In this document: piece after piece, positions 4,472-60,953 of the stretch
Layout of the letters: each line of letters opens with the position of its first letter
Position numbering within the stretch: position 1 is the stretch's first letter
NCBI GenBank assembly: GCA_963775895.1
Contig: CAVZKL010000017.1
Coordinates: 32,001-96,000 of the forward strand
Length of the DNA: 64,000 bases
Direction: 5' to 3'
Origin: Candidatus Bathyarchaeota archaeon
GTDB lineage: Archaea; Thermoproteota; Bathyarchaeia; Bathyarchaeales; Bathycorpusculaceae
Translations under genes and position numbers: made by a program
Notes under the pieces: generated by a model
What the model saw: only the letters and a program-made list of their open reading frames with translations
The model's database searches: none
Told to the model about the DNA's origin: nothing

Positions 4472-4640
4472 TCATGGTTTGTCTTTTGCGTTGAGCAGTT
4501 CTTTCCTCATCATGTCTTTCAGGGCTACGCTTAAGTTTTCGATTTGTTCCTCTTCGCACGATGCGGGACCTGTACAGGCTGTGTATGGGCGGGTCAAGGC
4601 CTCTCTGGTCAAGACTTCTTCAGGGTTCAAACTCCGCGCG
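4472..4640 (-). pseudogene. 3' gene remnant resembling the C-terminal tail of archaeal site-specific integrases
   Basis: Reads ARSLNPEEVLTREALTRP..EEEQIENLSVALKDMMRKELL*, with no start codon, beginning at CGCGCG (4635-4640). Family resemblance is recalled, not searched. Confidence 0.4.
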
Positions 4641-4653
4641 GTTCTGACGTATG

Positions 4654-4905
4654 CTAGAGGATCAGTCCCATGATTATTTCCAATACTCCAAATACTGCTC
4701 CTATACCATAGAAAACGGTCATCAATGAAACATTGTTTGGAGGCAAGTTAGCAAACGAAGCAGCAGACACATACTCTATTAGTAAAAGAATTGTTCCAAG
4801 ACACGTTAAGATTCTGATGAGTATGAGTACGTGACCCACCACTCTGGGAAGAGTTTTGGTTCTGTCTCTGGTTTTCTCTTTGGTTTTGTCGTTTCTGGTT
4901 TTCAC
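4654..4905 (-). CDS. Small membrane protein (2 TM, KTR-repeat N-terminus)
   Basis: ORF track; two hydrophobic segments. Confidence 0.55.
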   Translation of the reverse strand: MKTRNDKTKEKTRDRTKTLPRVVGHVLILIRILTCLGTILLLIEYVSAASFANLPPNNVSLMTVFYGIGAVFGVLEIIMGLIL

Positions 4906-4969
4906 TCATTCTTTTAGTTCCTAGTTTGTCTTCTGTTTGTCGTGCAGCGCGCGCTTGCAGATCAGCTTT

Positions 4970-5347
4970 TCATAGCACGCGTGATTTCATAGTGTGAGCG
5001 CGTGTTTCGTCAAGGTACTGTCGAATTTTCTCTATGCCTTGATATTTTTTTCCTTGAACTATTGCTGTTGGAGTTTTCCGAATTCCCCGTACAAACGCTT
5101 TGATCAAGTCAATCGTTCTTGAAGTATCAAGCAATTTGACCTCTTCACCAGATTCCTTCACTAATGGTTCCAACAGCTCTAAGGCTTGAAAATCCTCTGG
5201 TGAAAGAATTCGTCCCTTAAAAGATGATGCAAGACCTTTCACGAGTCCTTCCGATGTGCCTGGACGGCAGTGGGAGTGTGCGCTTGTTTCTCGGTACGCA
5301 TCCATATCTACGCTCTCGGAATATGAGCGCACATAGATTTCGATCAC
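4970..5347 (-). CDS. Hypothetical protein, possibly thioredoxin/glutaredoxin-like fold
   Basis: ORF track; IEIYVR first strand and GIRKTPTAIVQGKKYQG cis-Pro-loop-like motif. Confidence 0.55.
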   Translation of the reverse strand: MIEIYVRSYSESVDMDAYRETSAHSHCRPGTSEGLVKGLASSFKGRILSPEDFQALELLEPLVKESGEEVKLLDTSRTIDLIKAFVRGIRKTPTAIVQGKKYQGIEKIRQYLDETRAHTMKSRVL

Positions 5348-5430
5348 AGAGCTTCTCCATCTCTATTAAGCGTTATGAATATTAACGTCTAACGTTTCGC
5401 GAGCGCTGACAGCACTGTGAAGATTTTCGT

Positions 5431-5733
5431 TCAGAAGAATCTCTGCTTCTTTCCTTGTAGAGGTATGGTAATGAAGAAAGCTATCCAACAGATTCCGATG
5501 AAGAGGGCAGAGCCGAAGAGAAAATTCCTTAGTGGATGCATATATGGAAGCCAATTTATGAGGACGTCAGGGTTTAGTTTTCGGTACAACTCAACTATCT
5601 CTGGCTGCTGTGAATTAACCCCCTGTTCTACACCAGCTACATAGGCTACTGCCATTGTCAAAACAACAGTTCCTATGGCTAGGAAGACTACCATCAACCT
5701 TAACATCTTATCCACGGCTTTTAACCCATCCAA
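5431..5733 (-). CDS. Small 2-TM membrane protein
   Basis: ORF track; two hydrophobic helices. Confidence 0.55.
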   Translation of the reverse strand: MDGLKAVDKMLRLMVVFLAIGTVVLTMAVAYVAGVEQGVNSQQPEIVELYRKLNPDVLINWLPYMHPLRNFLFGSALFIGICWIAFFITIPLQGKKQRFF

Positions 5734-5922
5734 GAAATGATTAGCTTGGCTCCCGTATAATCCTAGAGATTAGAACAGAAAATCCAGAGATTAGGACACG
5801 GGCGGAGTCTCTGTTTCCTAGTCAATTGCTTTCACTCATATGTTGTTCTTTTGATATGGCAAGTTTCTACGAAAACCCGACTTTGCGGGAGATATTCCGT
5901 TTTCTTTGCTCGTACATGTCAA

Positions 5923-5956
5923 GTTTGGGTTTGGGTTTTGGTTTGGGCGCGCGCGC
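5923..5956. repeat. (GTTTGG)x4 imperfect tandem repeat fused to a (GC)5 tract
   Basis: gtttgg gtttgg gttttg gtttgg gcgcgcgcgc read directly. Confidence 0.8.
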
Positions 5957-6014
5957 ACTATTTCAGGGACTCCTTAGAAGTATGGTATCACCCAGAATCT
6001 TTGCTCCGAAAATC

Positions 6015-6578
6015 TCAGTTTTTGGAAGCTTGGAGATCTGTCTTTTTCTCGTGGCTCAATAGACTCAGTGTGAAGGCGGCTATGAAGAGCAGCATTGAGG
6101 GATATGTAAGCCAGTAGCCTTGTTGATAGGAGATTTCCCAAGATCTAAAACTCGTGCCCACGTAGACCATTAATGCAGTGACCGTTGGGCATAGGATTGC
6201 TGGGGCAAGAGCCAGAATCCTCTTGTTGAGAAAAACAGAAGCTACTCCAGTAATCAACGTCAGGATTTGAGCTACAAGCATGAATACAAACACCAATGGA
6301 AGCTCGGATTTATAGGCATATTCTTTGACCCAATAGTCATAGAACCAATATTCAACAGTCTGATTAAGGAACAGGGATCTAACCTGTTGGGTGGAACACT
6401 TTAACGACCAATAACTAGTTCGATCCGAATCCTCAGGAATAATGCTTGCGGGACGAATTTCATGAAGAAAAGGAAAAATGGTTGAGCCTAGGAAAAGCAA
6501 GCATCCAAGTATGAGCAGGACCATTCTCAATATGCCCATGTGCTTAACAGAGTTGCCTTTTGAATCAACCATTATCAA
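6015..6578 (-). CDS. Hypothetical 4-TM membrane protein
   Basis: ORF track; four hydrophobic segments with a large first loop. Confidence 0.65.
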   Translation of the reverse strand: MIMVDSKGNSVKHMGILRMVLLILGCLLFLGSTIFPFLHEIRPASIIPEDSDRTSYWSLKCSTQQVRSLFLNQTVEYWFYDYWVKEYAYKSELPLVFVFMLVAQILTLITGVASVFLNKRILALAPAILCPTVTALMVYVGTSFRSWEISYQQGYWLTYPSMLLFIAAFTLSLLSHEKKTDLQASKN

Positions 6579-6684
6579 AACCCCATCTGAAGAATATACT
6601 TCGATTCTCTTATAATTCCACGTTTTAGAACAGAGCGTTCTTACAATTCTTCAGGTAAATGATAGACTTTAGAGGTGTGGTGAA

Positions 6685-6864
6685 ATGGGAATTGACGCGC
6701 GTGCTGTGATCGGTGTTCTAGCGGCTGTGTCCATAATAGTGATTGGAATAACCATAATGACGTATCTTAATTCCATAAATCCACTTGGCGCAATTCTCGG
6801 TATAATAGTGCTAATAGCCGTAGCCATTGCCATAGTTGTCGGCTTCGCTCGATCACATACCTAA
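6685..6864 (+). CDS. 59-aa 2-TM membrane protein (not in ORF track)
   Basis: MGIDARAVIGVLAAVSIIVIG...FARSHT*; GAGGTG/GGTGA SD-like sequence upstream; TAA followed immediately by CGCGCGC. Confidence 0.6.
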   Translation: MGIDARAVIGVLAAVSIIVIGITIMTYLNSINPLGAILGIIVLIAVAIAIVVGFARSHT

Positions 6865-6988
6865 CGCGCGCTAGAATATGTGTTTCGTTGCTTCTTGCTT
6901 GGATTGAGTGAGGATTGCGTGTTAGTGTTGAAGTGCGTCCAGAAGGCTTTTTTAGCCGTACATTTACTTTTCCTAGACATAATCCAAT

Positions 6989-9481
6989 TTGCTTCAGGAC
7001 GTTGTCAACGTGAAGAAAGCACTGCCAAAACTCGATATTCCAGTGATTGAAAAGAAATGGCAGAATGAATGGGAAAAACGCCGCGCTTACCTTTTTGACT
7101 GGAAGGACCATAAACGACCTAGCTTCAGCATCGACACTCCGCCGCCCTATCCGTCCGGTGAGTTTCACGTTGGAACAGTTCTGAACTGGACCTACATCGA
7201 CATAGTGGCACGTTACAAACGTATGCGTGGTTTTAACGTTCATTTTCCTCAAGGTTGGGACTGCCACGGTTTGCCAGTTGAGGTTGAAGTGGAAAAACAG
7301 CACAACATCAAGAAAACCGACGTCCCACCAGACCAGTTCAGTAAACTCTGTGAGCAGTTAGTGAACGAGAACATAGCTTCTATGAAAGATTCTATGGTAC
7401 GCATGGGTTTTTCGATGGATTGGACAACAGAGTTCAAGACGATGGACCCTGACTACTGGAGGCGCACGCAACTTTCATTCATCATGCTGTACAACAAAGA
7501 TTTCATCTACAAAGGAACGCACCCAGTCAACTGGTGTCCTCGCTGCGAAACTGCCATAGCCGACGCTGAAGTGCGGTATGATCGCAGAAACGCCGATCTA
7601 CAACACGTCAAATTTGAGCTTGAGGACGGCGGTTCTCTTGAAATAGCCACGACAAGGCCTGAACTGATTCCCGCATGCGTTAGCGTTGCGGTTCATCCTG
7701 ATGACGATCGCTACAAAAAGTACGTCGGAAAACGGGTCAAAGTACCTACAACAGGTCGAGCTGTTGAAATCTTGGCCGACGATATGGTCGATCCAAAATT
7801 CGGAACTGGCGTGGTGATGATCTGCACTTACGGTGATAAGGCTGACGTAAAAACAGTCATGAAACATCATTTGCCAGTGATAATGTGCATAGATGAGAAA
7901 GGCAGAATGACGAAGAACGCAGGGAAGTACGCGGGCCTGTCAACTGGAAACGCCAAGAAGGCTATTCTGGAAGACCTGAAGCTTCAGAGGCTGGTCGATA
8001 GGACCGAAAGCCTGGAGCAGGAAGTCAGCATCTGCTGGAGATGCCGGACTCCGATCGAAATTCTCGAGAGAGAACAATGGTTCATGAAAACTCGAATTCT
8101 GACGGACAAAGTGGAGAAGAATGCTCTAGAGATCACTTGGTATCCTGATTACATGAAACACCGGCTGATCGATTGGGCTCGATCACTCGAATGGGACTGG
8201 GTAATATCTCGACAACGCGTGTTTGCTACGCCAATACCGATCTGGTATTGCAAGAAATGTGGCGAAGTAATTCTTGCCAAACCCGATTGGGTGCCGATTG
8301 ACCCGCGCATTGAAAAGCCAAAAATCCAGAAGTGCCCAAAATGCGGCGGCAATGATTTCAAGCCGGAAACCGACGTGCTTGACACATGGTTCGATTCTTC
8401 GATAACATGCGCGGTCCACGCAGGATGGCCAGACAGGAAAGATTGGAGGAGACTGTTCCCTGCAGACGTTCATCCTTCAGGAGTCGACATCATACGCACA
8501 TGGGCTTACTATTTAATGGTGAGGCATCTCGCTCTGTTCGACGAGAAACCCTACAAGAGTTGCTTGATAAACGGTATGGTTCTCGGCACTGATGGACGTG
8601 AAATGCACAAGTCTCTGGGCAACTATGTTTCGTCAGTTGAAGTTCTTTCAAAATACGGCGCAGACGCGATGAGACAATGGGCCGCAGCTGGAGGGGCCAC
8701 AGGTTCAGACATATCTTTCAGGTGGCCCGACGCAGAGTATGGATGGCGTTTCTTGATCAAACTCTGGAACGCGTCGAGCTTTGTCAGTAATCTACTGAAA
8801 GACTATGAGCGGGCCGAAGACTCTGATCCAGACCTTCAGCCACTGGACAAGTGGATTTTAAGCAAGACTGAACAAATCACGCAGAAAGTGACCGAGGCCT
8901 TGGAAACGTGTCAGTTTAACATTGCCCTTGAGGAAACGCGCAACTTTACTTGGCATACGTTCTGTGACTGTTATTTAGAGGCAGTGAAGGATCGACTTTA
9001 CAGACCGGAAGTCTACGGTGAGCCAAAGAAAAGGGCAGCACAGTATACGCTGCATACGGTTCTCAAGAGGATTCTTTTGCTACTTGCACCGATGATACCT
9101 CACGTGACCGAGGAAGTGTACTCCATACTCTACGCAGAAGAAGATGAACAGACAAGCATTCATAGTTCCGCTTGGCCAGAACCTAGGAAAGCCACAATTG
9201 ACGCAGACGCAGAAAGAAAGGGCGAGATCATAATAGCAATTATAGCCGAACTTCGAAAAGAAAAAGCTGAGAAACATCTTCCGCTGAATACGCAGATCAA
9301 AAATCTGAAGATATTCACCGAAGAAAAGGACATAGCGGAAACTATCAATCAGGGAAAAGGAGACATCAAAGGAACCTGCAAAGTCGCAGAAATGCAGATC
9401 CTTTCCGAAAAAGGTGCAGGCCGAGAAATCAAACCGTACAACATCCGTTTCAGAACGGAGTTTCAACCGAAGCAAGAGTGA
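6989..9481 (+). CDS. valS: Valyl-tRNA synthetase (archaeal type)
   Basis: DTPPPYPSGEFHVG (HIGH-like), GWDCHGLP, ATTRPE editing domain, DWVISRQR and EMHKS (KMSKS-like); true start may be GTG at 7010. Confidence 0.95.
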   Translation: MLQDVVNVKKALPKLDIPVIEKKWQNEWEKRRAYLFDWKDHKRPSFSIDTPPPYPSGEFHVGTVLNWTYIDIVARYKRMRGFNVHFPQGWDCHGLPVEVEVEKQHNIKKTDVPPDQFSKLCEQLVNENIASMKDSMVRMGFSMDWTTEFKTMDPDYWRRTQLSFIMLYNKDFIYKGTHPVNWCPRCETAIADAEVRYDRRNADLQHVKFELEDGGSLEIATTRPELIPACVSVAVHPDDDRYKKYVGKRVKVPTTGRAVEILADDMVDPKFGTGVVMICTYGDKADVKTVMKHHLPVIMCIDEKGRMTKNAGKYAGLSTGNAKKAILEDLKLQRLVDRTESLEQEVSICWRCRTPIEILEREQWFMKTRILTDKVEKNALEITWYPDYMKHRLIDWARSLEWDWVISRQRVFATPIPIWYCKKCGEVILAKPDWVPIDPRIEKPKIQKCPKCGGNDFKPETDVLDTWFDSSITCAVHAGWPDRKDWRRLFPADVHPSGVDIIRTWAYYLMVRHLALFDEKPYKSCLINGMVLGTDGREMHKSLGNYVSSVEVLSKYGADAMRQWAAAGGATGSDISFRWPDAEYGWRFLIKLWNASSFVSNLLKDYERAEDSDPDLQPLDKWILSKTEQITQKVTEALETCQFNIALEETRNFTWHTFCDCYLEAVKDRLYRPEVYGEPKKRAAQYTLHTVLKRILLLLAPMIPHVTEEVYSILYAEEDEQTSIHSSAWPEPRKATIDADAERKGEIIIAIIAELRKEKAEKHLPLNTQIKNLKIFTEEKDIAETINQGKGDIKGTCKVAEMQILSEKGAGREIKPYNIRFRTEFQPKQE

Positions 9482-9487
9482 TCTACC

Positions 9488-10226
9488 GTGAAGAAGGTCG
9501 GTGTCATTGGGTGCGGCGTAATCGGGGCACTCATTGCGAAGTCATTCGCAGAAAGACTGATCCCGTGTGACGAACTAATCCTATTCGACAAAGACATTGA
9601 AAAAGCGCAGAAAATACGAAGCGTTATTGAAGGCTCCGATCACGCCTGTGAACAGTGTTGATGAGATGATCAGGGCAAAACCCGCAATCATCGTTGAAGC
9701 CGCGTCACAACAGGCCGTCAGAGAGTATCTTCACAAAATCTTGTCAGCTGACATAGAAGTCGTGATCATGAGCGTGGGCGCGCTCTTGGACATGGACTTG
9801 GAGAGTGGCAAGATTCACATACCATCCGGGGCCATCGGCGGTCTGGACGCTATTTCTACCGCTTCGCTTGCGGGAATCAAAGAAATAACTTTGACGACTA
9901 GGAAAAACCCGAAGACTCTTGACACGAGCAGCGACTTGGAGAAAATCGCTTACGAAGGGTTCGCGGAGGAAGCAGCCAAGCTTTTTCCGAGAGAAATGAA
10001 TGTTGCAGCCACTTTGGCGTTGACCGTCAAACCCCACAAAGTGAGAGTCAAGGTAATTTCAGACCCTAAGGTCATACGAAACGTTCACGAGATTCAACTG
10101 GTCTGGAAACACGGAGACATGTTCTTCCGATTCGAGAACGATCCTCATCCCGAGAATCCGGGCACGAGCGCACTGGCAGCTTGGTCAGCCATTAAGCTTA
10201 TCAGAGACCTGTTGGAAAGGAACTAG
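9488..10226 (+). CDS. nadX: L-aspartate dehydrogenase, frameshift near 9600
   Basis: GTG at 9488 gives KKVGVIGCGVIG (Rossmann motif), continuing after an A-run indel into VEAAS, PSGAIGGLD and NPGTSALAA. Confidence 0.85.
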
Positions 10227-10227
10227 G

Positions 10228-11019
10228 TTAGGGCATCAGTCCAGTTCCAACGTCCACCCAGGTCTTCTCGCCAATCTTTTTGTACCCGATTTTCTCGTAA
10301 ACCCTTATGGCAGGGTAATTGTCTGATCTAACAAAAAGAGCAGCCGACTCAGCTTGTCTAAGAGCTTCTTGAGTAACCGCTGACGTGGCAAGAAGTGCGT
10401 AGCCTTTGTTCCTCTTTTCTGGTGCCGTATAGACTCCTCCTATCATCCACACTTGAGGAAGCTGAATGAAGGAGCCCGCGTATGAGACTAGTTGGTCATT
10501 GTCGAAAACGCCGTACAGTGGCATTTTCGTTATCCAGTTTTGATACCTGCGAAGATTTCGTCTTGGGCGATCCTTTCTGTCAAGGAGAAGGTTAGAGAGC
10601 AATTTGGCATCCGATCTTGTTTCAAGCTTTCTCACCTTTTGTGATCTAAACGTGTTAGCTTGGCTTCTCCTTACTAACATCCAGTTTTCAACGTAGCTCT
10701 TGGCATTCGGAAATCTCTCTAATACGGTCTGAACGTTCTTCGGCGGGGTATGCAGAATGAAGCCGTTCTCAGGTGCGTATTCCACGAGTTTTCTTGCAGT
10801 TTCTTCTTCACATTCTAAGATTACACTTGGAACATCTGTTGCCGTATACACTAGGACGTATCCGACAACCTCTTTGTTCTCTAAAGCAACGTGCATCGTG
10901 GTGCGGTCAAACTCGTGCTGAATGTCGTAGAAGGCAAAAACGTGCCTGATTATGTCTGATTTCAGATATTCAACGATGCGTTATACTTGCGCCTTCGTTA
11001 CCTTTCTTACAGTTATCAT
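10228..11019 (-). CDS. GNAT (FR47-like) acetyltransferase with an in-frame TAA at 10981-10983
   Basis: GGVYTAPEKRNKGYA and NYPAIRVYEKIGY motifs; the frame extends to ATG at 11019 through one stop. Confidence 0.8.
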
Positions 11020-11055
11020 CAATTCATCGGCCGAACGGTGGGTTAGGCTTGTCAG

Positions 11056-14282: not shown

Positions 14283-14378
14283 GGGCCCGTAGCTCAGTAA
14301 GGATAGAGCACCGGACTTTTAGGCAACGAGGGTTGCGGAGAAATCCGGGGGTCCCGGGTTCAATTCCCGGCGGGCCCG
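14283..14378 (+). tRNA. tRNA-Lys(UUU) with a 21-nt intron at 37/38 (14322-14342)
   Basis: GGGCCCG acceptor stem, CCGGA-CTTTTA/A-TCCGG anticodon arm, GTTCAAT T-loop. Confidence 0.93.
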
Positions 14379-14444: not shown

Positions 14445-14522
14445 CATATTTGGATCCTAATATTCATGATACATTGAAACCGAGGAGGGGAGGGTACACA
14501 ATAAGCTTTTTTCAGCGAATAA
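14445..14522 (+). repeat. 78-bp inverted repeat, left copy
   Basis: Matches the reverse complement of 18681-18758 except for two 1-nt homopolymer indels. Confidence 0.92.
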
Positions 14523-18477: not shown

Positions 18478-18680
18478 AACTAAATACTTTGCAGGTCAAT
18501 TTTCTTCAAGCTTCTGTTCGGTAACAGGCTACGAGATGGCCAGGTTTTACAGTCGTCAGTTCGGGTTCGACTCTGCATCTGTCTTCCGTGTAGGGGCATC
18601 TCGGGTTGAAACGGCACCCCTTAGGGATGTCTATTGCGCGCGTGGTACGTCACAACGATGCGGGCGCTGAGGAGAGGTGT

Positions 18681-18758
18681 TTATTCGCTGAAAAAAGGCT
18701 TATTGTGTACCTCCCCTCCTCGGTTTCAATGTATCATGAATATTAGGATCCAAATATG
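18681..18758 (-). repeat. 78-bp inverted repeat, right copy
   Basis: Reverse complement of 14445-14522. Confidence 0.92.
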
Positions 18759-18831: not shown

Positions 18832-19140
18832 CTATTTTAGCATGGGCATCTTGATGCCTTTTTTTGGCTATTCTCTGTGCTTTTTGTAGCCTGCGTCTGC
18901 GTGGCGTACGATTCCTATTCCAGGGTCAGTCGTGAGGACGGTAACTATTCGTTTTTCCATTTTCTTGGTTCCGTCTGCTACGAGGCACATGCCGGCGTGA
19001 ATGCTGTAGCCGATGCCTACGCCTCCTCCGTGATGCACGCTGACCCACGTTGCACCGCTGACGGCGTTTATCAAGGCGTTCAGTATTGGCAGTCTGCGAT
19101 CGCGTCGCTTCCGTCCTTCATTCCTTCAGTTTCGCGTCTG
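18832..19140 (-). pseudogene. hutU: Urocanate hydratase C-terminal fragment
   Basis: [15 protein letters not shown](W)[47 protein letters not shown]; no room upstream for the rest of the gene. Confidence 0.88.
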
Positions 19141-19185
19141 AACGCTGTAATAAGAGAAAAAATGCGTTCCCATTTGAGGAACACA

Positions 19186-19456
19186 CTATTGAGTCTTTTG
19201 CGGTTGCTGTGTTTTCGGTTTGGGTTTCTGTGCCCTTGCTGCCAGACTATAGATTAGCCATATTATTACGCCGTAGATCACGCCGTTGAACACTGCTTTA
19301 ACAAGTGTCGCTACTGGAATTCCTAACACTTGGGTAATCCGTGCTTGGTACGTTGAGGGCGTCGTAGATCTGTTTGCCAGGTGGCAAGTCAGCGTACGCT
19401 AAAGTTGCCGCTAGGAACAGTATGAAAGCTATGATAAATACTAAAGCGCCTTTCAT
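19186..19456 (-). CDS. Small membrane protein (frameshifted)
   Basis: MKGALVFIIAFILFLAATLAYADLPPG.. continuing as LGIPVATLVKAVFNGVIYGVIIWLIYSL in another frame. Confidence 0.6.
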
Positions 19457-45092: not shown

Positions 45093-45180
45093 GCGGGGGT
45101 CGCCGAGCATGGTCAAAGGCGTAGGCTTCAGGAGCCTATCCCGCAGGGGTTCGTGGGTTCAAATCCCACCCCCCGCACCA
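45093..45180 (+). tRNA. tRNA-Leu(CAG), CCA encoded
   Basis: GCGGGGG acceptor stem, TAGGC-TTCAGGA-GCCTA anticodon arm, long variable arm. Confidence 0.95.
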
Positions 45181-45217: not shown

Positions 45218-45403
45218 TTATTGATCGGAAGCCAAGGGATCTTTGGGTTTTGCGAAGATCTTGCCACCGTCAGTGTATTCACCGGTACAGTACTTCTATC
45301 CGTCTTCGATGAGAGCGCAGGCTTCGTTGACGTTGTGAGCTATCTTTGTAACGTATTCTTGTTCGTTTTTGAATAGCACTTGGGCAAGGTGGATGTATCG
45401 CAG
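45218..45403 (-). pseudogene. Tyrosine integrase C-terminal remnant
   Basis: Reads LRYIHLAQVLFKNEQEYVTKIAHNVNEACALIEDG*KYCTGEYTDGGKIFAKPKD. It includes a catalytic-Tyr-like motif and an internal TAG at 45296-45298, and points toward the tRNA 3' end. Confidence 0.7.
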
Positions 45404-45414
45404 CGCGCACGCTA

Positions 45415-46938
45415 TTAGAATGCTTTCTTCCCAATAGGGAAGAGTGATATTTTGAAACTGTGTTTTCCAAGCTCCAGAGCCTTTGGGCAGGGTATTCTTG
45501 GGCCTGCGTCTCCGTGACTTAGAATCTGAACGCTGCGAACCAGTGTGAAATAGGCGTCTCCGTTATCTTTGACTTCATAGTCGAAGCAATCGTCGCTACT
45601 GAAGCGAAGCCCATTACCGTTTTGATCTTTGTATTCGAAGAAATCGTTGAGGGCATGCGGAGTGTTCAGTTTTCTCTCGACGAAAACGTCTTTGCAAAGA
45701 TGATGAATCAATCTGCCATTTCTTATACCAGTGTTCACGATGAGCCTTAGGACGTGTCTGGGATATTGGAAATTTGTTTGGACCAGCAGATCCAAGGTGG
45801 AATCGTTAAGACGTGATTTTAACTTGACGGAGTTTTGGGAAAGGGCAACTTTCACTGATGGTATGGTGTGGTATAGGTCTCCCTCTTCAGATTTAAGTTC
45901 GAAGGAAATCTTGCGCAGGAAATTTCCTTTGTATGCTTTTCCTTTCGTTACTGCTTTTTTGGCAATTTGGATATTTTTTAGCTTTTTCTCCGCGTTTGGA
46001 TATACTTCGTCGATCCCAGTGCCGCAGATGAGGTCGTGGAATGTTGCATAGAGTAAATTCTTCCATTCTTCATCATCAGCTTCTTTGTTTAATACTTCTT
46101 TTTCAGCGCTTCTATAGAGTTGCTTGAAACTGATTCTGCTGCTATAATATCCTTTGAAATTACGCGTAATCGGATAACATCTCGCCTGTTATCGTCGGTA
46201 ACTTGCTGTTTTTCTAATTCCCTGAAGAATTCTGAAGGTAAAGCGAATTTAGCTCCTTTAGTTTCATGAACCTGTTGAATGAGTTTTTCATGTGGGACAC
46301 AGAAATCTCCTCCAAAAGGTATGAAAGCAAGGTCTGTTGTAGGCTCTAAGGGCATGTGTAGCTTTCGCTAAACTGTTAAAGTAATACCCGAACAAGCTAT
46401 AACCATGCTTCATCCAGTGGGCAAGAATGGTAGTTCCGTCTGTTCCAGTCCAATAAAATTCTTGGGTAGAGTCAGGTTCATTCATCCCTCTCCAAAAAAC
46501 GTAATATTTTAGGTTTGCTTCTCTCGCTATTTTGGGCATGATTCCCGGATGTCCAAAGCAATCAATCATCCAGGCAACTTGAGGTTTTGTGTTAAATTCT
46601 TTTTTAGCAAAATCATTCATGATTTCATAATTCTTCTTTATTACAAATGGAGAAATAAGATTAAGATCCGGCATCACATATCCTGCGTTAACAACTTCTA
46701 TCCTACCTTCAAGAATCCTATCAGCAACTTGAAGGAATAATTTTGGCCTTTCCATTTTCATCTTCTCAAGATAGAATGCTTGATCAACAACATACTTGAA
46801 ACTCCTATCTTTTTCCATTATTTCCATGACTTTACCCAAGATTTTGTAGACTTTTTTCAAGTATTCCTTTTCTGTGTTAATCCATGCAACATCGTAATGA
46901 AAATGGGGAATTACGAATACTCTCTTCTCTAAATCCAT
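45415..46938 (-). CDS. Glycoside hydrolase family 38 (alpha-mannosidase-like), frameshifted
   Basis: PHFHYDVAW, WMIDCFGH, EFYWTGTDG, GGDF and ATFHDLICGTG motifs across three frames. Confidence 0.85.
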
Positions 46939-47162
46939 AAAATCAAACCGGTGGACGGAATTTAAGAACTTTGCTGCCTTCGAAGTTGGACTAAGACAAA
47001 GATATTCAGAAGCCCACGCGCGCTAACCCAAGAGCAGTAATGTCAATTGGAAAAAAGGGGGTTTTGCGGGAGATGTTAAGTTCTGCTTCAATATCGCCAG
47101 CTTGACGTGGGTTCAAATCCCACCCCCGCACTACAATTTGGGTCCAGCTTAAGTCACGTGCC

Positions 47163-48112
47163 TCATTTCACAGCTTCTTCTGTAATAATCTTTGGAGTTC
47201 TGGTCCATCCGGAATAATGGTGTGTCTTGGAAAGAAATTCTCTTAGAAGAAGGTACATCTCCTTTACGTTGATGGCTATTAGCGATACTAGCGTTAGGAG
47301 CGGGATCAAAGCGTAATAATAAAGCGGCGTCGAAGCTCCACGCTGGACTACCATCTGCAAGAATCCCGCACCTATTCCGTCGATCAGAAGTGGGAAATTG
47401 AGCAAAACGAGGCTGGCCACCAATGATAATCCTGCTCTTTTCAAGTCTAGCTTGTTGTAAAAGGCGAACAAGGGAAGCGAGAGTAAGAAAAACCTCGGGT
47501 CAAAAGCTCCTAGGCCCAGCACGATTCCTGACGGGATCGGTCGGCGAGTCCGACCCAAATAGAACGAGAGCAAGAGAAGAGTCGTGTTTAACACTTTGTC
47601 CTGTCCTTCGGCCCACTGCCAATAGTAGCTCACCGACAATCCCCAGTGCGGGACTGGCGATGGTTGAAGTAGTGCTATGATGATTACGACTGCTATTGCA
47701 AGGGCGCTTCTGTCTTTGAGCAACTCGTAGATCAAGAACGCCATGACGGGTAGAAGAAGCAATTGTATCAAGTCGAATGCTATCAAAGCCTGCTGGTAAT
47801 TCAAGGCTAGCAGGGGAGAGGCAAAATCAAGAATGAGGGCAGATACTTGAAAGGCTCAGGTTGCGGATAGATAGAAGGTCCCCCGTCGTTAACTGCGCCT
47901 TGAGTGTAAACGTTCGACGGATCATGAAGGAACCTCCACGAGGCCGTGTAGTAGGCTGAAAAATCCTTCGCGAGAATTTGATTAGCACAACATCCAGGAT
48001 CCACGATGAAAGTCTCGGGATATGCTTGAATGAAGGTGTACAAGTTGAGGAGGATCGCAACTATTACGATCAAGAGCAGAATTATTTTCTTCCTAGCTTC
48101 CTTCTTCAACAC
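47163..48112 (-). CDS. GT87-like membrane glycosyltransferase (frameshifted)
   Basis: KDFSAYY..FKYLP and WAEGQ motifs; multi-TM. Confidence 0.65.
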
Positions 48113-48337: not shown

Positions 48338-49342
48338 TCAGAGACCGATGCTGTTGATGACGCTGCCTGAGTTGCCATCGATGACCAGGACTATCTTGTT
48401 CCCTTTGTGGTCGTAACGGGCAAACCATATCGGCGCGTAAAGCAGCTCTGAATCTGCGACGTCCACATCCGTGTGTAACTGCTGGATCATATGGTACTGC
48501 GCGTGCGCCTTCTCGGATTGCAACTGGTCGACGAGCGTCTTTGCCTGATATTTGGCTGCCTCTTCTCCAACGTCACCGTTCAGGATCTTTATACCCTTTG
48601 GGACCTTCGAGACATCAAAGAGTGTTCTGTCGTCGAGGTTGAACTGGTAATTTCTGGGCTGATGCTCAGTCAGAGCCTTGAGCGCTACTATCGGGAAATT
48701 GTAGTTGTTGTTCATCTCGTAGGTTTTCCTCGCGTTAGCCTTGACCAGGACCCATCATGCGAGCCCAGCACCGCTCCCGCAAGAAGAGGCCCTGCGAAAC
48801 CTCCCCACCGCGTCTGCCGCCGAAGCGCCGACCCCATCACGCCAGCGAGAGCGGCGGTGGTGGCGATCTCTCCAGCTTGAACTGCCATGTCACTGGCCAC
48901 GACGGATGTCCTTGCTGAGACAGAAACAATCCAATATGGAACAAAGCTCAGGTTTATCTCTTCGAGCGTTGAACTCTCCTGAAGATGTCTGTGGAGCAGT
49001 CCTCTGTCCATGAGGTCACGGGTCCTCGGCGACGACCTGGTCCTTTTCTGCAAACTTGAGCGGAAGCATCGTCTGTTTCTGTACGCCCCTCCAACCGTCG
49101 TTTCCTAATGTTATACCAGTTCCACAGTACTCACAGGTTATGATCATCTCGCCGAATTTGGGCGTGATAGGTGCGCCACAATTGGGGCACTTCAGCGCCT
49201 TTGCTCCCAAAGGGGCAATGATCGGTGCCGTCGAAGCTGCGGTCTGCTTTGCTTGTGCAGTGGCAAGGTTGGTTCCGCACTTGATGCAGAAGACGGCATC
49301 ATCTGGAAGTTGGGTTCCGCACTTAGGACAGTACAAGTTCAC
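48338..49342 (-). CDS. Zinc-ribbon-containing protein (split into 3 ORFs)
   Basis: CPKCG..CIKCG and CPNCG..CEYCG; FVPYW and YAPIW..VIDGNSG motifs. Confidence 0.7.
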
Positions 49343-54307: not shown

Positions 54308-54462
54308 TGGTGTGAAGAAGGTCGGCTTTCTCCTGTGGAACAATGATGATCGGTGGGTCAGAGATCGGAGAACTCGAACAAATAACTCTGGAGGCGCTAC
54401 CACCAACGAATTGCACTGCTATATCCAGGGTTCAGTTTGCATTGTTCTTGTTCGCATCGAGA

Positions 54463-54783: not shown

Positions 54784-54926
54784 GCCGACTCACGTGGGTG
54801 TTCAGTATATAAGACGCAGAAGTCTCTACTATAGCTTTCCAAACAAGCCTATTCAGTCTTCAGTTTTTCAAAAGAGAAGTCTACGTAAAGACAGATGGAA
54901 AAATCGGTTGCGCAAGCGGCTTTTCT

Positions 54927-55448
54927 TTAGGGTACTCTTTCAAAGGCTTTCTTCGATGCGCCACAGATCGGGCAGTTCTCTGGAGCCTCGCGTTCATGAA
55001 CGTGGCCGCAGACTGTGCACACATAGTATTCTGTGGAGCGTTGTGCAATCAAATCGGTGAGGGCTCTCTTGTAGAGATTGGCATGCTCAGCTTCAACGTC
55101 TCGCGCCTGTGAAAAGACCAATTCTGCCTTTTCCTCTCCGTCCTGTTCTGCATCTTGCAGCATTCTGAGATAATGAACGCCGTTAACTGCGTTCTCAGAC
55201 TGGAATGCTGTCTCAAGGTTCGTTTGTGTGTCTGAAACCGATTCAAGAAGGCCGAAGTGTCTCCGCGAATGGACTCCTTCAGCCGCAGCAACAGCTCTGA
55301 AAAGATGAGCTATTTGTGGCAGTTCCTCTTCTTCGGCTTTCTTGGCAAACATCAGAAGCCGTTGATAAGCTTTGGCTTCACCCACGAACGCGTCGTGCAC
55401 GTTATTTGCTGTTCTCTCTTTCATGGGGTCGTTCACCTTATCATTCAA
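54927..55448 (-). CDS. rbr: Rubrerythrin
   Basis: AFVGEAKA, EGVH, EAEH and a C-terminal CTVCG..CPICG rubredoxin domain. Confidence 0.9.
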   Translation of the reverse strand: MNDKVNDPMKERTANNVHDAFVGEAKAYQRLLMFAKKAEEEELPQIAHLFRAVAAAEGVHSRRHFGLLESVSDTQTNLETAFQSENAVNGVHYLRMLQDAEQDGEEKAELVFSQARDVEAEHANLYKRALTDLIAQRSTEYYVCTVCGHVHEREAPENCPICGASKKAFERVP

Positions 55449-55597
55449 TATCGTTTAATGAGGAATTCTTTAAGTTTTTGCATAAGTCATAACTGCCAGT
55501 TCCGTACGTCTTACGTCGTCGCTTAATGCTTGCGGTAACTGGTGTTTTCCAGTCATGTTGTTAGAAATGGAAAGTCGTTCTGACCGCATTCTTCAAT

Positions 55598-55802
55598 CTA
55601 GTCGTATTTTTTTAGCCTGATCATCTTCCTGTAGTGTCGCAGATCTGAAGCGACTCGTTTGAGAACGTAGAGTTCTTCCATCGTTTTCTGGAAGTTTGTA
55701 AACTCCTCGTATATTCTGTCTACCGCGGTGTCTCTCTGTTCCATTGCTTCTGTCTCCGGGTTCTATGGTGCTGAGGGTGTTCATTGTTAGTTGGCTGACC
55801 AC
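55598..55802 (-). CDS. Small helical hypothetical protein (frameshifted)
   Basis: Frame MEQRDTAVDRIYEEFTNFQKTMEELYVLKRVASDLRHYRKMIRLKKYD* looks coding. Confidence 0.4.
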
Positions 55803-55978
55803 TCAACCATTTTCCGTCACTGAGGAGAAAGGAGAAGGCTTCGAGAACGGAAAAAAATTCGTATTGGTCTTGTGGTATGCCTTCAACCTCGGCCCTCCAG
55901 CACATCGTAAGACTTAAGAGTCAAGTCTACTATAAAAAGCTTGTTAAACAATAAAACATGTGCTCTTTGCAGCTGATT

Positions 55979-56569
55979 CTAACCTATGGCCAGTATGCCT
56001 TCCAGTATCTTCTTCTCCGGAACGTCCAGCTGTTTGGAAAGCCACATCTTTAACAACGCCGTTTCCTTCGGAAGCGGCCCGCTGTAGGTTATAATCTGGT
56101 TGTCTTTGACTGCGTCAACTTGGAACAGTTTCTCCTGTTCCCGGTACATGAATGACAACGTCTGCGCTTGAGAAGCTATACTTTGGAAGTCTTCCCAGAT
56201 TTTGCACCTCAAAATGACAGGAGGCCCCCGTGTTTCCTTGACTTCCAAATCTTGGGTCCTTGATCTTGACATTGGTGGGGGCGAGATCTGGGCTGGCGTC
56301 TGCAAAGCTTGCTGCGGCGTTGGCAATTGTTCACGAGAAGCTGAAAGATGAGTGATTAGATTAGTTATCTCGTTCTGCAGAGTTGACAGACGTTCTTCAA
56401 CTTTCTCGACCTTCCCACTGAGTTCGCCTGTGTCACCCATCCTCTCGGTTATCGTACCGAGCTCATTAATGAGTCTGTCAAGGTCTTTTTCATGCTCCTT
56501 CAGGACGTTTACGATGAAATCTAACGCTTCGAGTGCTTCGTCCTTCGATGGGATCTTCCTAGACATCAC
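55979..56569 (-). CDS. Hypothetical coiled-coil protein with a C-terminal globular domain
   Basis: Heptad repeats over roughly residues 10-75, a P/Q-rich linker and an alpha/beta C-terminal domain. Confidence 0.75.
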   Translation of the reverse strand: MMSRKIPSKDEALEALDFIVNVLKEHEKDLDRLINELGTITERMGDTGELSGKVEKVEERLSTLQNEITNLITHLSASREQLPTPQQALQTPAQISPPPMSRSRTQDLEVKETRGPPVILRCKIWEDFQSIASQAQTLSFMYREQEKLFQVDAVKDNQIITYSGPLPKETALLKMWLSKQLDVPEKKILEGILAIG

Positions 56570-56750
56570 TGCATCTCCGCTGTTTCGCTCACCCTATAAC
56601 GTGCGAGCTTTATAAATAAACTTAGCGAATCCTCAAAATGTATCGTTGTGACGCGCTTTCTATCCTTATTGGGAATCATGTGCAACAAATCGTAATGTTT
56701 CGCAGGGGTTCAATGGGAGAGTTAAAATATCAGTCCTCCAAAGACTCTAG

Positions 56751-58191
56751 GTGCTCGGAAGGCCTCTTATGCATGGAATGCTGAATTTTTCGCAAAAGGA
56801 AGAGGTTCTCAAATTCATCTCAGAAAACAACTGTAAGATATTGAACCTCTGCCACATTCCTGAAGAAGGTCGATTGAAAGTTCTGAGTTTTTCCACCGCC
56901 GACAGAGATCGAGTCAAGGAGGTGTTGGAATATGGGGAACGGGTTGATGGGTCAAGCCTGTTCTCCTTCATTGAACCTGGCAGAAGTGACATCTATATCT
57001 CGCCGCGCATCACTCGGGCTTTTGCAGATCCGTTCGCAATCCTGCCAACGTTGAACGTTCTGTGCGATTATCTTGATGAGAATGGAAAGCCGCTGGACAT
57101 CGCGCCGCAGACTGTGCTGGCAAGAGCTGAGACTACGCTGAAGGCTTCAACCAACGTTGCTTTGAAAGCTTTGGCCGAACTCGAATTCTATATAATGGCG
57201 AGGATGCAGACTGAATCACTCTTTCAAGGTCTGCCCGACAAGAACTATCATGAGTGTTCTCCCTTTTCAAAGTTCGAAGAAATTCGAAACGAAATATTAG
57301 CAACACTTGCCGTCATAGGTATCCCCACAAAATACGGACACAGTGAAGTGGGCCGAATAACAACCGCGGATGGAGTAACAATTGAGCAACATGAAATCGA
57401 ATTCATGCCCCAGAAGCTCGCTGACATGGCTGAGACAGTAGCCATCTCGAAGTGGACAATCCGCAATGTCTGTCTTAGGCATGGTGTGTCCGCTTCATTT
57501 ATTCCGAAGATCGATTTGAACCACGCTGGTAACGGAATGCATGTGCACCTCTGCGGCTTCAGACGCAACCGCAACGTCATAGTAGATGCAGGCCGAGAGC
57601 TCAGCAAAGAGGGACTCAGCATGATCGGTGGGATACTAAAATTCGCTCCAAGTCTGGCGGCATTTGGGAACCCCACACCCGTCTCGTATCTCCGCATCGT
57701 CGCCAGAAAAGAGTCACCCATGCACATCTGTTGGAGTGCCCAGAACCGCCTAGCCCTGATACGCATACCCTTGTGGTGGAGATTCAGAAAATCATCCGAA
57801 AGAACAGAATCGTGTCGCGAGACGTTTGAGTACAGGGCTCCGGATGCATTTGCCAATCCAAGCCTCTTGCTTTCAGGGTTGACCCTCGCAGTGAAACTGG
57901 GGACTGGAAAACGCGAATGAATCACTGAGAATTGCTGAAGAATTGCATGCACGTTCACTGCGGGCGGAGGAAAAGAAGTTTCGAATCTTGCCCCAGTCAT
58001 GCAGCGAAGCAGCTCAGTATCTTGCGAAAGACAGGAAGCTCTACGAGGTCGACGGCGTCTTTCCAGAAAGGCTCATCGAAACCGTCATTCACAGACTTGA
58101 CGACTACAAAGATCGAAACCTGTTGAGAGAAATGCTCGAAAAGCCAGAAGAACTGCAAAAAGCGATAACACAATACCTACACTACGGATAA
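56751..58191 (+). CDS. glnA: Glutamine synthetase family protein (frameshift near 57900-57945)
   Basis: DGSS, ELEFY, HSEVG, QHEIEF, GNGMHVH, NRLALIRIP and EYRAPD motifs. Confidence 0.85.
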
Positions 58192-58320
58192 CGTAGAAGT
58201 GAAACTGTAGGCATGCATTCTTGCGCGCGTTGGAAAAGAGAGTTCGATATGTACAAAGCAAAGACATGTCCTGAATGTGAGAGCGGTTTTTGTTTACGAA
58301 ACGGACGAAGGAAATAGACT

Positions 58321-58616
58321 GTGATTGAAGAACAACATCCAGACATTTTTTGGCATCGGTTAGTAAAGTACGCTGTGATCACAATGGTTATTCAAGCAGT
58401 TCTTGGAATGTTGCTTTACTCCACCATGTATGGACGAGGACCTCTGTCCTTGCTTTTTCTGATACCTATGACAAATATCGGCTACTTTGGTTATTGCAGA
58501 ACGCTATTAGCTTCAGGCTATGGCCAGCTGCAATGCTGATCGGAAGCTTTTTCATGTTCTTTTTGATTTTTGTCCTTGGGGAAATCACACATCGGTTGAG
58601 GCGAGCTTTTTCATAA
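58321..58616 (+). CDS. Small membrane protein (frameshifted)
   Basis: Hydrophobic segments across two overlapping frames. Confidence 0.45.
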
Positions 58617-58759
58617 ACAAAGAAATGAACGAATTATGAGTGAAGTATCTGATGAGGGTCCTACGTGGAAAAAGTAAGTAGTTCTGCGTGGAATATGCTA
58701 GGGGAAGCTGGAATCCAGTGCGCGCGCACGTATATTTCCTTTTATGATATCATGAGAGA

Positions 58760-59374
58760 TCAAATTAGATCTCTTATTTTTTCAAAAATATCCGATGCCA
58801 ATATCTTGTTTCCACAATGATCGCATTTTGTTTGATTTCCAGATTCAGGCAGCCTAACGGACGCACCACATTCCGGACATTTCATAGTCTGCAACACTAG
58901 ACCGCCCTTAACCATATACTCCCTCAAAGAACCAAAGTCCAACACAACCTGAACGTGCTCTCTTCTTCTCTCTCCTTCAATAGTTGCCAATCGGGCTTCT
59001 GAGGCGCTGTTTATCACACTTTGCCATTGTTCAGGATCTTTGACCGAAAAATCAAGTCTCACTGGAAAATCACTAACAAACCCTTTCTTGACATAAACCA
59101 CAAGTTTCTTTCCCAACATTCCTTCGACAGACGTGCTAGAAACTCCATCCAATGGCAAGTCGAGTGTTACGTAAACTCTCTTCGTGAAGATGCCGCTCTC
59201 ATGCTCAAGAATTAGACGCTTGTTGGTTAGAAACAGATTCCCAAAAACGTCCTTGTGTCTGCAAGTTTCAACGATTATCGTGTGCTCATCATGCTCGAGG
59301 TTAGGCACATTGAAATCCTCACTATCGTCTACATTCAACGCCGCAGTTTGGACAAGCGGGCTTCTTGAATACAA
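58760..59374 (-). CDS. PH-like (bPH/GRAM) domain protein with C-terminal zinc ribbon
   Basis: GNLFLTNKRLILE..LDLPLDGV and CPECGA..CDHCG motifs; start uncertain. Confidence 0.7.
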   Translation of the reverse strand: MYSRSPLVQTAALNVDDSEDFNVPNLEHDEHTIIVETCRHKDVFGNLFLTNKRLILEHESGIFTKRVYVTLDLPLDGVSSTSVEGMLGKKLVVYVKKGFVSDFPVRLDFSVKDPEQWQSVINSASEARLATIEGERRREHVQVVLDFGSLREYMVKGGLVLQTMKCPECGASVRLPESGNQTKCDHCGNKILASDIFEKIRDLI

Positions 59375-59504
59375 AGCCCACTCTTGGACAGCATGCTTCG
59401 CAATAAACTCTCTTGCACGATGGACATTGCCAAGCTCGGGGTTTCATAAAGCCTCCAACTTCCCTTCCGCACTTTGCACAAAACCCCCTAGCCAAATGAA
59501 CCAT
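59322..59504 (-). CDS. 60-aa cysteine-rich zinc finger protein
   Basis: Four CxxC pairs (CAKC, CPSC, CEAC, CPNC). Confidence 0.6.
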   Translation of the reverse strand: MVHLARGFCAKCGREVGGFMKPRAWQCPSCKRVYCEACCPRVGFVFKKPACPNCGVECRR

Positions 59505-59540
59505 CTCTGTGAAGTTCTGTTTTTCCTTAGCGAGATAAGA

Positions 59541-60121
59541 TTATCGGTTTCCCAACATATTATCGATGGAATTGAACTCATCGAGAGACTCTGAAGCGAA
59601 TCTGTGAGAAAGCGAACCTGAGAGTTCTAAGCTAACGCTGACTTCGACTGCGAAGATGTCCTTGCCTTCTTGCCAATAATCATCACTACTAATATTCCAG
59701 TCGTGAGCAGCGACAGCAGGATAATTGGTGAAAACTCCGGAACAGCCCCATATCTTGTTCAATGATTGCATTATAGCCTTCAAGGTTTGCCACGCGAAAC
59801 TTCAAGTAGAACTCGCCTTGTCGATTATGAATATATGTCGTGCCGACTTGTGGTTGTATTGCCATATTCGGTTATTACGCCTATTAAACTGGCTTCGTTT
59901 CTTGAATAGACGTAGATATTGAAGACTGCAATCTCTGGAATGGTTGAGTTTGGCTTATAGTTCCAGTTTATTCGCCATTCAGCATGGTCACAAATGAAAT
60001 AGTTGGTTGTATAATCCCCAGAGCCTGTAAATCGTGTTACCTCACTCCAAGGGACAGCCCAAGCAAAGTTGGAGCTTAAAAGGAAAAGCATAAGGATAGA
60101 ACAGAGAATACTACTCCTCAA
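59541..60121 (-). CDS. Secreted hypothetical protein (frameshifted)
   Basis: Signal peptide followed by a beta-rich WSEVTRFTGSG.. domain. Confidence 0.45.
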
Positions 60122-60356
60122 TTGACATCAGCAATTATATCTATTCTCAAAAACTTTTATGTCTTATCTATTTTCTATTATGATATTTCAGCCAAATGGA
60201 ACATTGCTATAGACAATAAGTAAATAGACTTTGGCAGTTCTGTGCGGAACTACTTCAACCCAGCATTAATCACCGATCTGAAAAAGGAGTGCTGAAAGGC
60301 ATAGCAGAGTTAACTGTTACTTAATTTTTAACGCGTGCACCGAGCCGAGTTTGCAG

Positions 60357-60674
60357 TTAATATCCTTTGTTCCTATCTGATGAATCCAGCAAGTAACAGG
60401 ATACCCAGAGTGAGGAATAATATCGCAATCAATAGAAGCATTATTGAAATTCCAGTTTGTTTTCTACTTGTGGGAAGCGGCTCTAAATGGATTTGAATAA
60501 GTCACACGCCCACGCATGTACTGCACACTAAAAAACGCCATGACCAGTGCCAAAAATGAGGAAGAAGCCTGCAATCAGATAGTTGTACCATCCCAAGTAG
60601 GCTAGAATTCCCAGGATAATTATTGTTAGGGCAGAGAGAAACCAACTAGCCAATCTGTCGAGTATAGAGCCCAT
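60357..60674 (-). CDS. Small membrane protein (frameshifted; not in ORF track)
   Basis: MGSILDRLASWFLSALTIIILGILAYLGW.. ending ..SMLLLIAILFLTLGILLLAGFIR. Confidence 0.45.
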
Positions 60675-60953
60675 TGGCTTCCCAATTCTACAGGCTATTT
60701 AATGTAATAAGAATGTTTGCCTCTGGCGACTCGAACAGATCCCGCGCACGCTCGTATGAACTCTTCTATTTCCCTCCTTTCTAGCTCTTTTCACTTCCCT
60801 CCTTTTTTCTATTTATTAGGTTAATACCAGGAATTATTTGAGCGCGCGCGTTGAATACTGCCCTATTAGAAAGATTTTTCTATATTCCACAAGAAACACA
60901 AACCGAAAGCTCTATTAACTTTCTTACTCGAGGTTCTTTTCCGAAAGAAACTC

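Follow-up and report, generated by a model that had tools for sequence, protein, structure and literature searches.

Short tracts of alternating C and G punctuate the accessory, gene-poor DNA of a 64,000-nt stretch of a Candidatus Bathyarchaeota genome (hereafter the window), and an earlier note on this DNA had read them as scars or core sites of a gene-capture mechanism functioning like integron cassettes but without attC. Our analysis argues that these tracts are probably transposon termini, footprints and junction marks, and not the sites of an attC-less integron. Since the tract is the terminal hexamer of an insertion sequence (IS), of its miniature inverted-repeat transposable elements (MITEs) and of a larger element carrying cargo genes, ordinary transposition, excision and rearrangement would explain the pattern. 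A striking oligomer bias resembling a new recombination system would then be explained, for the most part, by a mobile element of which the window itself has no copy.

The window corresponds to C17:32001-96000 of a 1.77-Mb genome (G000) assembled as 28 contigs, with a GC content of 47.7%, a completeness of 88.8% and a contamination rated 3.46%. Orthologues were paired with those of G001, a single-contig relative of 2,346,764 bp, yielding 1188 reciprocal best hits among 1916 open reading frames (ORFs) at a median identity of 74.6%. The related genomes used in the comparisons are not independent of each other, and a gene called species-specific is one without a blastp match in one relative.

Elements bounded by GCGCGC

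The largest repeat family of G001 consists of 24 MITEs of ~215 to 238 nt devoid of transposase, the ends of which, in six aligned copies, are inverted copies of GCGCGC(AT/TA)GC.TGTTCC. This terminal inverted repeat pattern matches 41 times in G001, versus 0 times for the reversed control. One pair of such ends, 1.08 kb apart, bounds an IS reading TA-GCGCGCATGCGTGTTCCTAAATT...AATTTCGGAACACACATGCGCGC-TA (hyphens marking the element ends), or TA-GCGCGCATGCGTGTTCC...GGAACACACATGCGCGC-TA in short form. It contains two ORFs, matching DUF772 (PF05598, E 7.6e-11) and DDE_Tnp_1 (PF01609, E 1.1e-11), and hence a DDE transposase of the IS4/IS5 type; among NCBIfam models, IS1182 and IS5 come closest to it, and none reaches its cut-off. 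Autonomous and short copies have their terminal inverted repeats in common. The transposase is present in 6 of 10 genomes of the genus, as an intact single ORF of 329 to 341 amino acids in G004 and G009, and 3 of 20 other genomes contain a match at only 30 to 50% identity.

A third kind of element occurs in G000 itself, at C22:2974-6134. It is 3161 bp long and has inverted ends of ~180 nt starting with GCGCGC. It encodes no transposase; its cargo includes a gene for a membrane protein, which is partially duplicated within the element, and two internal copies of GCGCGCGC, together with two further fragments that, in our reading of their sequence, resemble the C-terminus of a cation-transporting ATPase. 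TA lies outside both ends of this element, as it does for the IS of G001.

Two other repeat families were observed alongside these elements. A sharply bounded repeat of ~78 nt, TTATTCGCTG(A7/T6)...GGATCCAAATATG, is present in 35 copies in G000 and has no Rfam family at gathering score; its small stem still pairs when the loop is inverted. Its two window copies (14445-14522, minus strand; 18681-18758, plus strand) are inverted with respect to each other and bracket 4.2 kb beside the tRNA gene at 14283-14378. The G001 MITE and the 78-nt repeat have a common core, ...CCCTCCCC...GATCCAAATATG. The second family, MITE-like, ~210 nt long and without GCGCGC ends, is found at L206:8704-8916 and ~23 other places in G001 and in more than 30 copies in G002; one copy directly follows the last tract of a 14-tract array of G001.

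Abundance, form and range of the tracts

Coding DNA of G000 was called with our own hexamer model, a crude procedure that assigned 78.5% of the genome as coding. The non-coding DNA (381.6 kb) holds 228 tracts of at least 8 nt, compared to 6.8 expected under an order-1 model, and 316 of at least 7 nt, compared to 26.6. The coding DNA (1.39 Mb) holds 29 tracts of at least 8 nt for 26.7 expected and is depleted in tracts of at least 6 nt (234 versus 454 expected). A cruder gene call gave the same picture.

The commonest non-coding 8-mer of G000 is GCGCGCGC (222 copies, 88 times the mononucleotide expectation), exact 8-mers of which number 99 in non-coding DNA, versus 21 for CGCGCGCG. Around 98 non-coding GCGCGCGC tracts, the adjacent bases are A on the left in 69% and T on the right in 69%, followed outward by a weaker T at -2 and A at +2, and position frequencies revealed no conservation further than 2 nt on either side. 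The two flanks are mutually independent (A and T, 53; A only, 24; T only, 25; neither, 13). The motif is therefore specific, namely (T)A-GCGCGCGC-T(A). Other dinucleotide repeats of at least 8 nt number 7 to 13 each in non-coding DNA, versus 234 for CG. Microsatellite slippage was excluded by the phase and flank preferences, by the ceiling of 11 nt reached by the longest tract in G001 and by the absence of excess of any other dinucleotide.

Copies of GCGCGCGC number 254 in G000 and 29 to 464 in 10 other genomes of the genus, 0 to 14 in 8 other genera of the family, and 0 to 6 in 12 genomes of other families in the order, with the exception of one genome with 53. The trait is common to these 11 genomes of the genus and nearly absent beyond.

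Several candidate drivers were considered and rejected. Tyrosine recombinase counts do not correspond to tract counts among the 31 genomes, G000 having 10 matches to the PF00589 profile, none of them in the window. An IS630/Tc1-type transposase was set aside, as DDE_3 was found in 0 of 21 genomes, as was TnpB, whose domain was found in none of the genomes of the genus. A restriction-modification link was also dismissed: PF00145 had no match, and the PF01555 match was by its motifs a THUMP-type tRNA methyltransferase (other methyltransferase families were not searched). Among the papers listed, none was by its title or abstract about GCGCGCGC in archaea, nothing relevant turned up on intergenic palindromes of Bathyarchaeota, and two passages of PMC13343696 make no mention of Bathyarchaeia or footprints.

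Tracts in variable DNA and at rearrangement junctions

The link between tracts and accessory DNA was assessed with tracts of at least 7 nt in G000, each intergenic region being classed by the orthology of its flanking genes in G001. The 416 syntenic regions, in which both flanks are orthologous and adjacent, contain 9 tracts in 60.5 kb, i.e., 0.15/kb. The density is 0.28/kb between core genes separated by a small indel, 0.57/kb between core genes at a synteny break, 1.18/kb where one flank lacks a homologue and 1.34/kb where both do. This 8- to 10-fold bias toward non-conserved DNA persists across length classes (0.07 to 0.26 versus 1.0 to 1.9/kb) and gene orientations, with GC equal at 44.6%. 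Among the syntenic regions, a tract is present in both genomes in 1, in G000 only in 7, in G001 only in 12 and in neither in 396. The tie to accessory DNA put forward in the earlier note is thus real on a genome-wide scale, with counts far above the order-1 null. A flat density across intergenic lengths had suggested a general property of all non-coding DNA, a view overturned by the synteny contrast.

These data also bear on whether the tracts could be a functional or structural non-coding signal, or a neutral product of mutation or repair surviving in unconstrained DNA, which appears improbable to us. The signals that come to mind, with just as little probability, are a terminator, an insulator, a sequence bound by a chromatin protein or a methylation palindrome of the HIP1 kind. 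In intergenic regions of 30 to 400 bp, the density is indeed 2.04/kb between convergent genes, compared to 0.86 between tandem and 0.56 between divergent genes; tracts peak 0 to 30 nt past stop codons, few lie within 50 nt of starts, and one-off variants are mostly transitions, as decay predicts. Nevertheless, conserved intergenic regions of any length or orientation and equal GC remain tract-poor, and tracts are not kept at orthologous places. Moreover, no C5 DNA methyltransferase was found, the THUMP-domain enzyme being the single N4/N6 match, and a functional signal leaves unexplained the coincidence of repeat ends and tracts described below.

Intragenomic repeats of at least 150 nt and at least 80% identity were collected with blastn, and their ends were compared with tracts of at least 7 nt, using positions shifted by 300 to 1500 nt as a control. 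Within 5 nt of a tract lie 10.9% of the 165 distinct repeat ends of G000 and 9.4% of the 869 of G001, versus 0.6 to 0.7% in the shifted control. Since more than half of the repeat ends found within 60 nt of a tract are within 5 nt of it, mere co-location near gene ends is no explanation. Together with the truncated integrase gene of the window (see below), these repeat ends bear out, beyond chance, that tracts are located at rearrangement or duplication junctions and at one truncated gene at least. In repeats with the tract on one copy alone, the end without it hardly ever falls within an ORF; pair counts are inflated here by multi-copy families.

Individual cases illustrate these junctions. 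Two G001 loci hold a 585-nt unit at 100% identity; tracts border it on both sides, and the sequences further out are unrelated. Likewise, a 296-nt gene found in G001 and G008 (96% identity), the product of which looks to us from its sequence like a small RAM-domain-like protein, has GCGCGCGC on both sides in unrelated contexts. G001 displays 18 runs of 6 to 14 tracts spaced by 200 to 700 nt, plus many smaller arrays; in relatives, pieces of these array regions are on different contigs in changed order and orientation, and several pieces end exactly at tracts. Within G000, contigs C2 and C16 differ by indels of 433 nt and 1.33 kb. In each, the short allele has a tract precisely where its two sides meet and the long allele has none, and the first indel has reduced a Zn-ribbon gene to a stump starting at the tract. 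The two segments concerned (C2:4697-12761 and C16:1905-10817) are 90 to 93% identical over several kb, with indels, and represent either an old duplication or two strains in one bin.

Some of these findings speak for an attC-less integron, in which tracts would be the core sites of a dedicated recombinase capturing, excising and inverting cassettes: tract-bracketed small genes or fragments recur in unrelated contexts, tracts form arrays, and segment order and orientation differ between species. We nevertheless give this mechanism little credence. Nothing is conserved beyond 2 nt on either side of the tracts in the way of attC, no intact recombinase lies in the window, and tyrosine recombinases are as numerous in tract-poor genera (7 to 15) as in tract-rich ones. 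Arrays are numerous and scattered, their ORFs face in either direction, and none has a recombinase shown adjacent to it; in about half of the tract-marked repeat ends of G000 viewed by eye, only one copy carries the tract. Finally, a transposable element with these exact termini exists.

Occupied and empty sites and proposed model

The MITE at position 532691 of G001 is missing from G002 and G008, where the empty site reads GAATAGTT(A/C)GC and contains no tract. This comparison is compatible with a TA duplication bearing one changed base and, as the empty site is tract-free, indicates that the MITE brings its own terminal tracts. Another MITE is present in G001 and G002 (G002 C1:250244), and between the same flanks G008 holds CTCTAGTA-GCGTGCGTG-CAAGCTC, a decayed 9-nt tract that is either a footprint or an older target. 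At a third MITE locus, the flanks are not conserved in relatives.

The second of these sites raises the alternative that tracts are older targets to which the IS/MITE family homes, themselves originating from a mutational or repair process or from a sequence-specific nuclease. The solo tract of G008 fits insertion equally well, the palindrome makes terminal repeat and target duplication indistinguishable, and elements are far outnumbered by tracts. However, the clean, tract-free empty site of the other MITE copy in two genomes, and the TA that flanks GCGCGC at either end of the IS and of the G000 element, which places the hexamer inside the element, make this alternative unlikely, if somewhat less so than an integron or a functional signal.

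We propose a model in which the tracts derive from a lineage-specific cut-and-paste family that would comprise the IS5/IS1182-like IS, its MITEs and larger transposase-less elements with host gene fragments, all with ends reading TA-GCGCGC...GCGCGC-TA. Upon departure of an element, a solo tract would be left behind if the transposase cuts a few bases inside each end; alternatively, it could arise by slippage between the two terminal GCGCGC copies. The solo consensus TA-GCGCGCGC-TA would then correspond to TA, four terminal bases from each end and TA. Insertions, excisions, adjacent deletions mediated by the IS and recombination between copies would be tolerated only in dispensable DNA, where tracts would come to separate a mosaic of small genes and fragments. 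The model would account for the bias toward accessory DNA and synteny breaks, for clustering and rapid turnover, for truncated genes and duplicates bounded by tracts, and also for the restriction to one genus.

Several observations weigh against this model. The IS transposase was found neither in G000 nor in four other genomes of the genus, including G005 with its 128 motif copies; it may have been lost from the G000 assembly, which is incomplete, repeats being often dropped. The G001 MITE has no match in G000, and the window contains no element ends. In five of the six aligned MITE copies, TA is present on the left side only, and T at -2 of solo tracts reaches only 40%. Known ends cover at most 41 of the 1151 G001 tracts of at least 6 nt, so that almost every tract is solo, with an origin deduced from one orthologous site, equally readable as the arrival of an element in an older tract. 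A tract is located at the junction in only 1 of the 7 indels scored among intragenomic repeats, and truncated protein-hit ends within 20 nt of a tract (2 of 194 and 5 of 578) are hardly enriched, on which grounds tracts as deletion scars in general were rejected. In addition, the outer edges of islands 1 and 4 of the window are 30 to 190 nt off the nearest tract.

A bolder extension would be that the 8- to 12-bp palindrome TAGCGCGCGCTA is near-sufficient for the transposase or for coupled host end-joining, making the DNA between any two tracts mobile. We regard it as a long shot. If true, tracts would be universal, orientation-free joints to capture, duplicate, invert and shuffle small genes and gene fragments in dozens of mini-arrays. 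Such a transposon-driven counterpart to the shuffling of integron cassettes is not known to have been described for archaea.

Tracts and islands of the window

The window contains 17 strict alternating C/G tracts of at least 6 nt, compared to 17.5 expected from 200 order-1 Markov simulations. Those of at least 7 nt number 8 (4.2 expected; simulation maximum, 10) and those of at least 8 nt number 4 (1.08 expected; simulation maximum, 5). The enrichment suspected by the earlier note is hence barely unusual in number, and it is the placement that is striking: all eight tracts of at least 7 nt are in four islands, within non-coding DNA that totals 8.2 kb there, with none in the remaining 6.5 kb of non-coding DNA or in the ~49 kb of coding DNA. 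Every tract position that it listed contains the sequence given for it, most as pure tracts; those at 5398, 14677, 48314, 60331 and 60743 turned out to be interrupted variants. No inverted repeats were found beside the window tracts. Among the tracts are the following (window positions, unstranded).

4635-4640: CGCGCG tract inside island 1
4947-4954: GCGCGCGC tract of island 1
5947-5956: (GC)5 tract, the longest of the window
6696-6701: CGCGCG tract, absent from the earlier list
6865-6871: CGCGCGC tract in the context TAA-CGCGCGC-TAG, 50 to 90 nt within the right edge of island 1
18636-18642: GCGCGCG tract lying 45 nt upstream of one 78-nt repeat copy
45403-45408: GCGCGC tract where the integrase remnant meets the 3' end of the GH38 pseudogene
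47017-47023: CGCGCGC tract in the interval that separates the GH38 pseudogene from the following gene
58223-58229: GCGCGCG tract, 33 nt within the left edge of island 4, followed by a short Zn-ribbon-like ORF
58720-58727: palindrome GT-GCGCGCGC-AC
60842-60850: GCGCGCGCG tract, 30 nt within the right edge of island 4

The islands and the genes they contain are listed below, with the strand in parentheses where there is one.

4441-6961: island 1, ~2.5 kb, ORFs without a Pfam family
45093-45180 (+): tRNA-Leu(CAG), left anchor of island 3
45218-45402 (-): remnant of a tyrosine recombinase gene with one in-frame TAG, its 5' side cut exactly at a tract
45415-46938 (-): fragmented GH38 alpha-mannosidase pseudogene, N-terminal domain at 46288-46938, the rest in other frames
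47163-48112 (-): GT87-like membrane protein gene split by one frameshift
48338-49342 (-): Zn-ribbon protein gene broken into three frames
58192-60880: island 4, ending before tRNA-Ala (60954-61031)

Three gene fragments had been thought to begin at tracts, which was confirmed for one of them. The remnant at 45218-45403 (minus strand) translates as ...RYIHLAQVLFKNEQEYVTKIAHNVNEACALIEDG, a stop, KYCTGEYTDGGKIFAKPKDPLASDQ and a final stop, and represents the 65 C-terminal residues of a tyrosine recombinase starting from the tract: 45221-45415 (minus strand) matches residues 273 to 337 of a 337-amino-acid integrase of G009 (82% identity, E 6.9e-30), a genome in which the intact gene adjoins tRNA-Leu at the corresponding place. 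DNA homology stops at 45402, the tract fills 45403-45408, and the first 272 codons are nowhere in G000 at that identity level. A tyrosine recombinase gene that adjoins the 3' end of a tRNA gene is the arrangement of integrative elements, of which the window keeps only this remnant. The other two fragments were not confirmed: 4472-4640, taken for an integrase stump, has no integrase similarity, and 58231-58317, taken for a Zn-ribbon stump, has sub-threshold Zn-ribbon matches only and is at most a putative fragment.

Besides the integrase remnant, island 3 contains three decayed genes. The GT87-like gene has a non-syntenic copy in G008 (90% identity), and the Zn-ribbon gene has non-syntenic homologues in G002, G005 and G008 (81 to 84%). 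Island 1 is absent in G005 and G006 between the thiamine pyrophosphate (TPP) riboswitch and the valyl-tRNA synthetase gene, the empty site being without tract, and the same place in G001, upstream of the valyl-tRNA synthetase gene, is occupied by a tract array with other content. A stretch of 45 to 57 nt ending at the tract at 4947 (4889-4948) recurs in three genomes of the genus at 82 to 85% identity. DNA matches to island 4 in the 10 other genomes of the genus are limited to two short pieces. In island 2, 18868-19456 (minus strand) comprises the last 68 codons of urocanase (PF17392 positions 125 to 190 of 196) plus two short ORFs with 79% matches in G005; it is a decayed hutU, with no tract at the break.

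Additional observations

The tRNA gene at 14283-14378 (plus strand, 96 nt) was detected only by the Rfam model (60.3 bits) and missed by ARAGORN in bacterial mode; its extra length is probably an intron, and the tRNA-Leu orthologue of G001 likewise appears interrupted. The TPP riboswitch (4307-4420, minus strand, 68.3 bits) is upstream of a small membrane protein gene (3776-4318) and is retained in G005, where the two genes to its left were not found in the syntenic stretch. Valyl-tRNA synthetase genes L002, L003 and L005 (of G002, G001 and G008, respectively) each have one in-frame TGA within an otherwise full-length match, and the matches in two genomes of other genera have an in-frame TAG; these stops could be due to alignments overrunning the start, sequencing errors or recoding. 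In G001, 2096997-2108976 is a perfect tandem duplication of 5996 bp with four ORFs of 143 to 560 amino acids, either real or an assembly artefact.

Several tracts are located within ~1 kb of G000 contig ends (for example at C26:13, C21:107, C17:730, C27:958 and C16:1047), and the assembly may break at tract-bearing elements. A metagenome scan for close strains found a best match of 84% identity, unusable for breakpoints. Public DNA datasets contain at most 0.25 of the sampled words, and no RNA dataset was among those listed. Contigs from public reads (X1, X2, X4 and X12) were too weak to use: bins 58676-60676 have a depth of 0 to 2.2 in X2, X4 and X12 and are covered in X1; one X12 contig departs at 58616 and rejoins at 60954 with a short side of only 26 letters; and at one X1 joint, 14 letters ending in (CG)5 lie between the sides.

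Comparison with known systems and significance

If solo tracts are excision scars, each genome records hundreds of past transposon visits. The tracts flag variable DNA and rearrangement breakpoints in uncultured Bathyarchaeia and are a likely cause of contig breaks. Moreover, the cargo element and the tract-bounded small genes suggest the capture of gene fragments by an archaeal DNA transposon.

The family resembles IS5/IS1182-like IS and their MITEs by its DUF772 and DDE_Tnp_1 domains, its terminal inverted repeats, TA beside the ends and a 24-copy transposase-less derivative of ~220 nt, and the 3.2-kb derivative of G000 with its host gene fragments is comparable to Pack-MITEs. It differs in that the transposase is under every NCBIfam cut-off and split into two ORFs in G001, and in that the solo terminal motif outnumbers the elements more than 10-fold and is the commonest non-coding octamer. 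To our knowledge, prokaryotic IS normally leave no such record of solo motifs. Eukaryotic Tc1/mariner elements leave a footprint made of TA, a few terminal bases from each end and TA. The solo TA-GCGC+GCGC-TA matches the residue that would be expected from TA-GCGCGC...GCGCGC-TA ends, and at only one orthologous site does a solo tract take the place of the element.

As in integron cassettes, small and often promoter-less accessory ORFs are arrayed here, each bounded by a repeated palindrome. In contrast, there is no attC structure, an imperfect palindrome of tens of bases, and no adjacent integrase or attI, the sole remnant in the window being the tRNA-Leu-linked integrase, and many small dispersed arrays with mixed ORF orientation are found instead of a single one-way array.

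Repetitive extragenic palindromes (REP) and the mosaic elements that they form (BIME) are extragenic palindromes associated with RAYT transposases. Like them, the tracts are short, GC-rich and palindromic, number in the hundreds outside genes and frequently lie downstream of them, but a tract of 8 to 10 nt is too short for a REP hairpin, and the tracts avoid conserved intergenic regions. The cyanobacterial palindrome HIP1 (GCGATCGC) is tied to cognate methyltransferases and evolutionarily conserved, according to the abstracts of PMC5861425 and PMC4390886. The tract motif is likewise a lineage-specific palindromic octamer over-represented tens of times, but no DNA methyltransferase was found for it with PF00145 and PF01555 in this 88.8% complete genome, and, unlike HIP1, it is confined to non-coding, non-conserved DNA.

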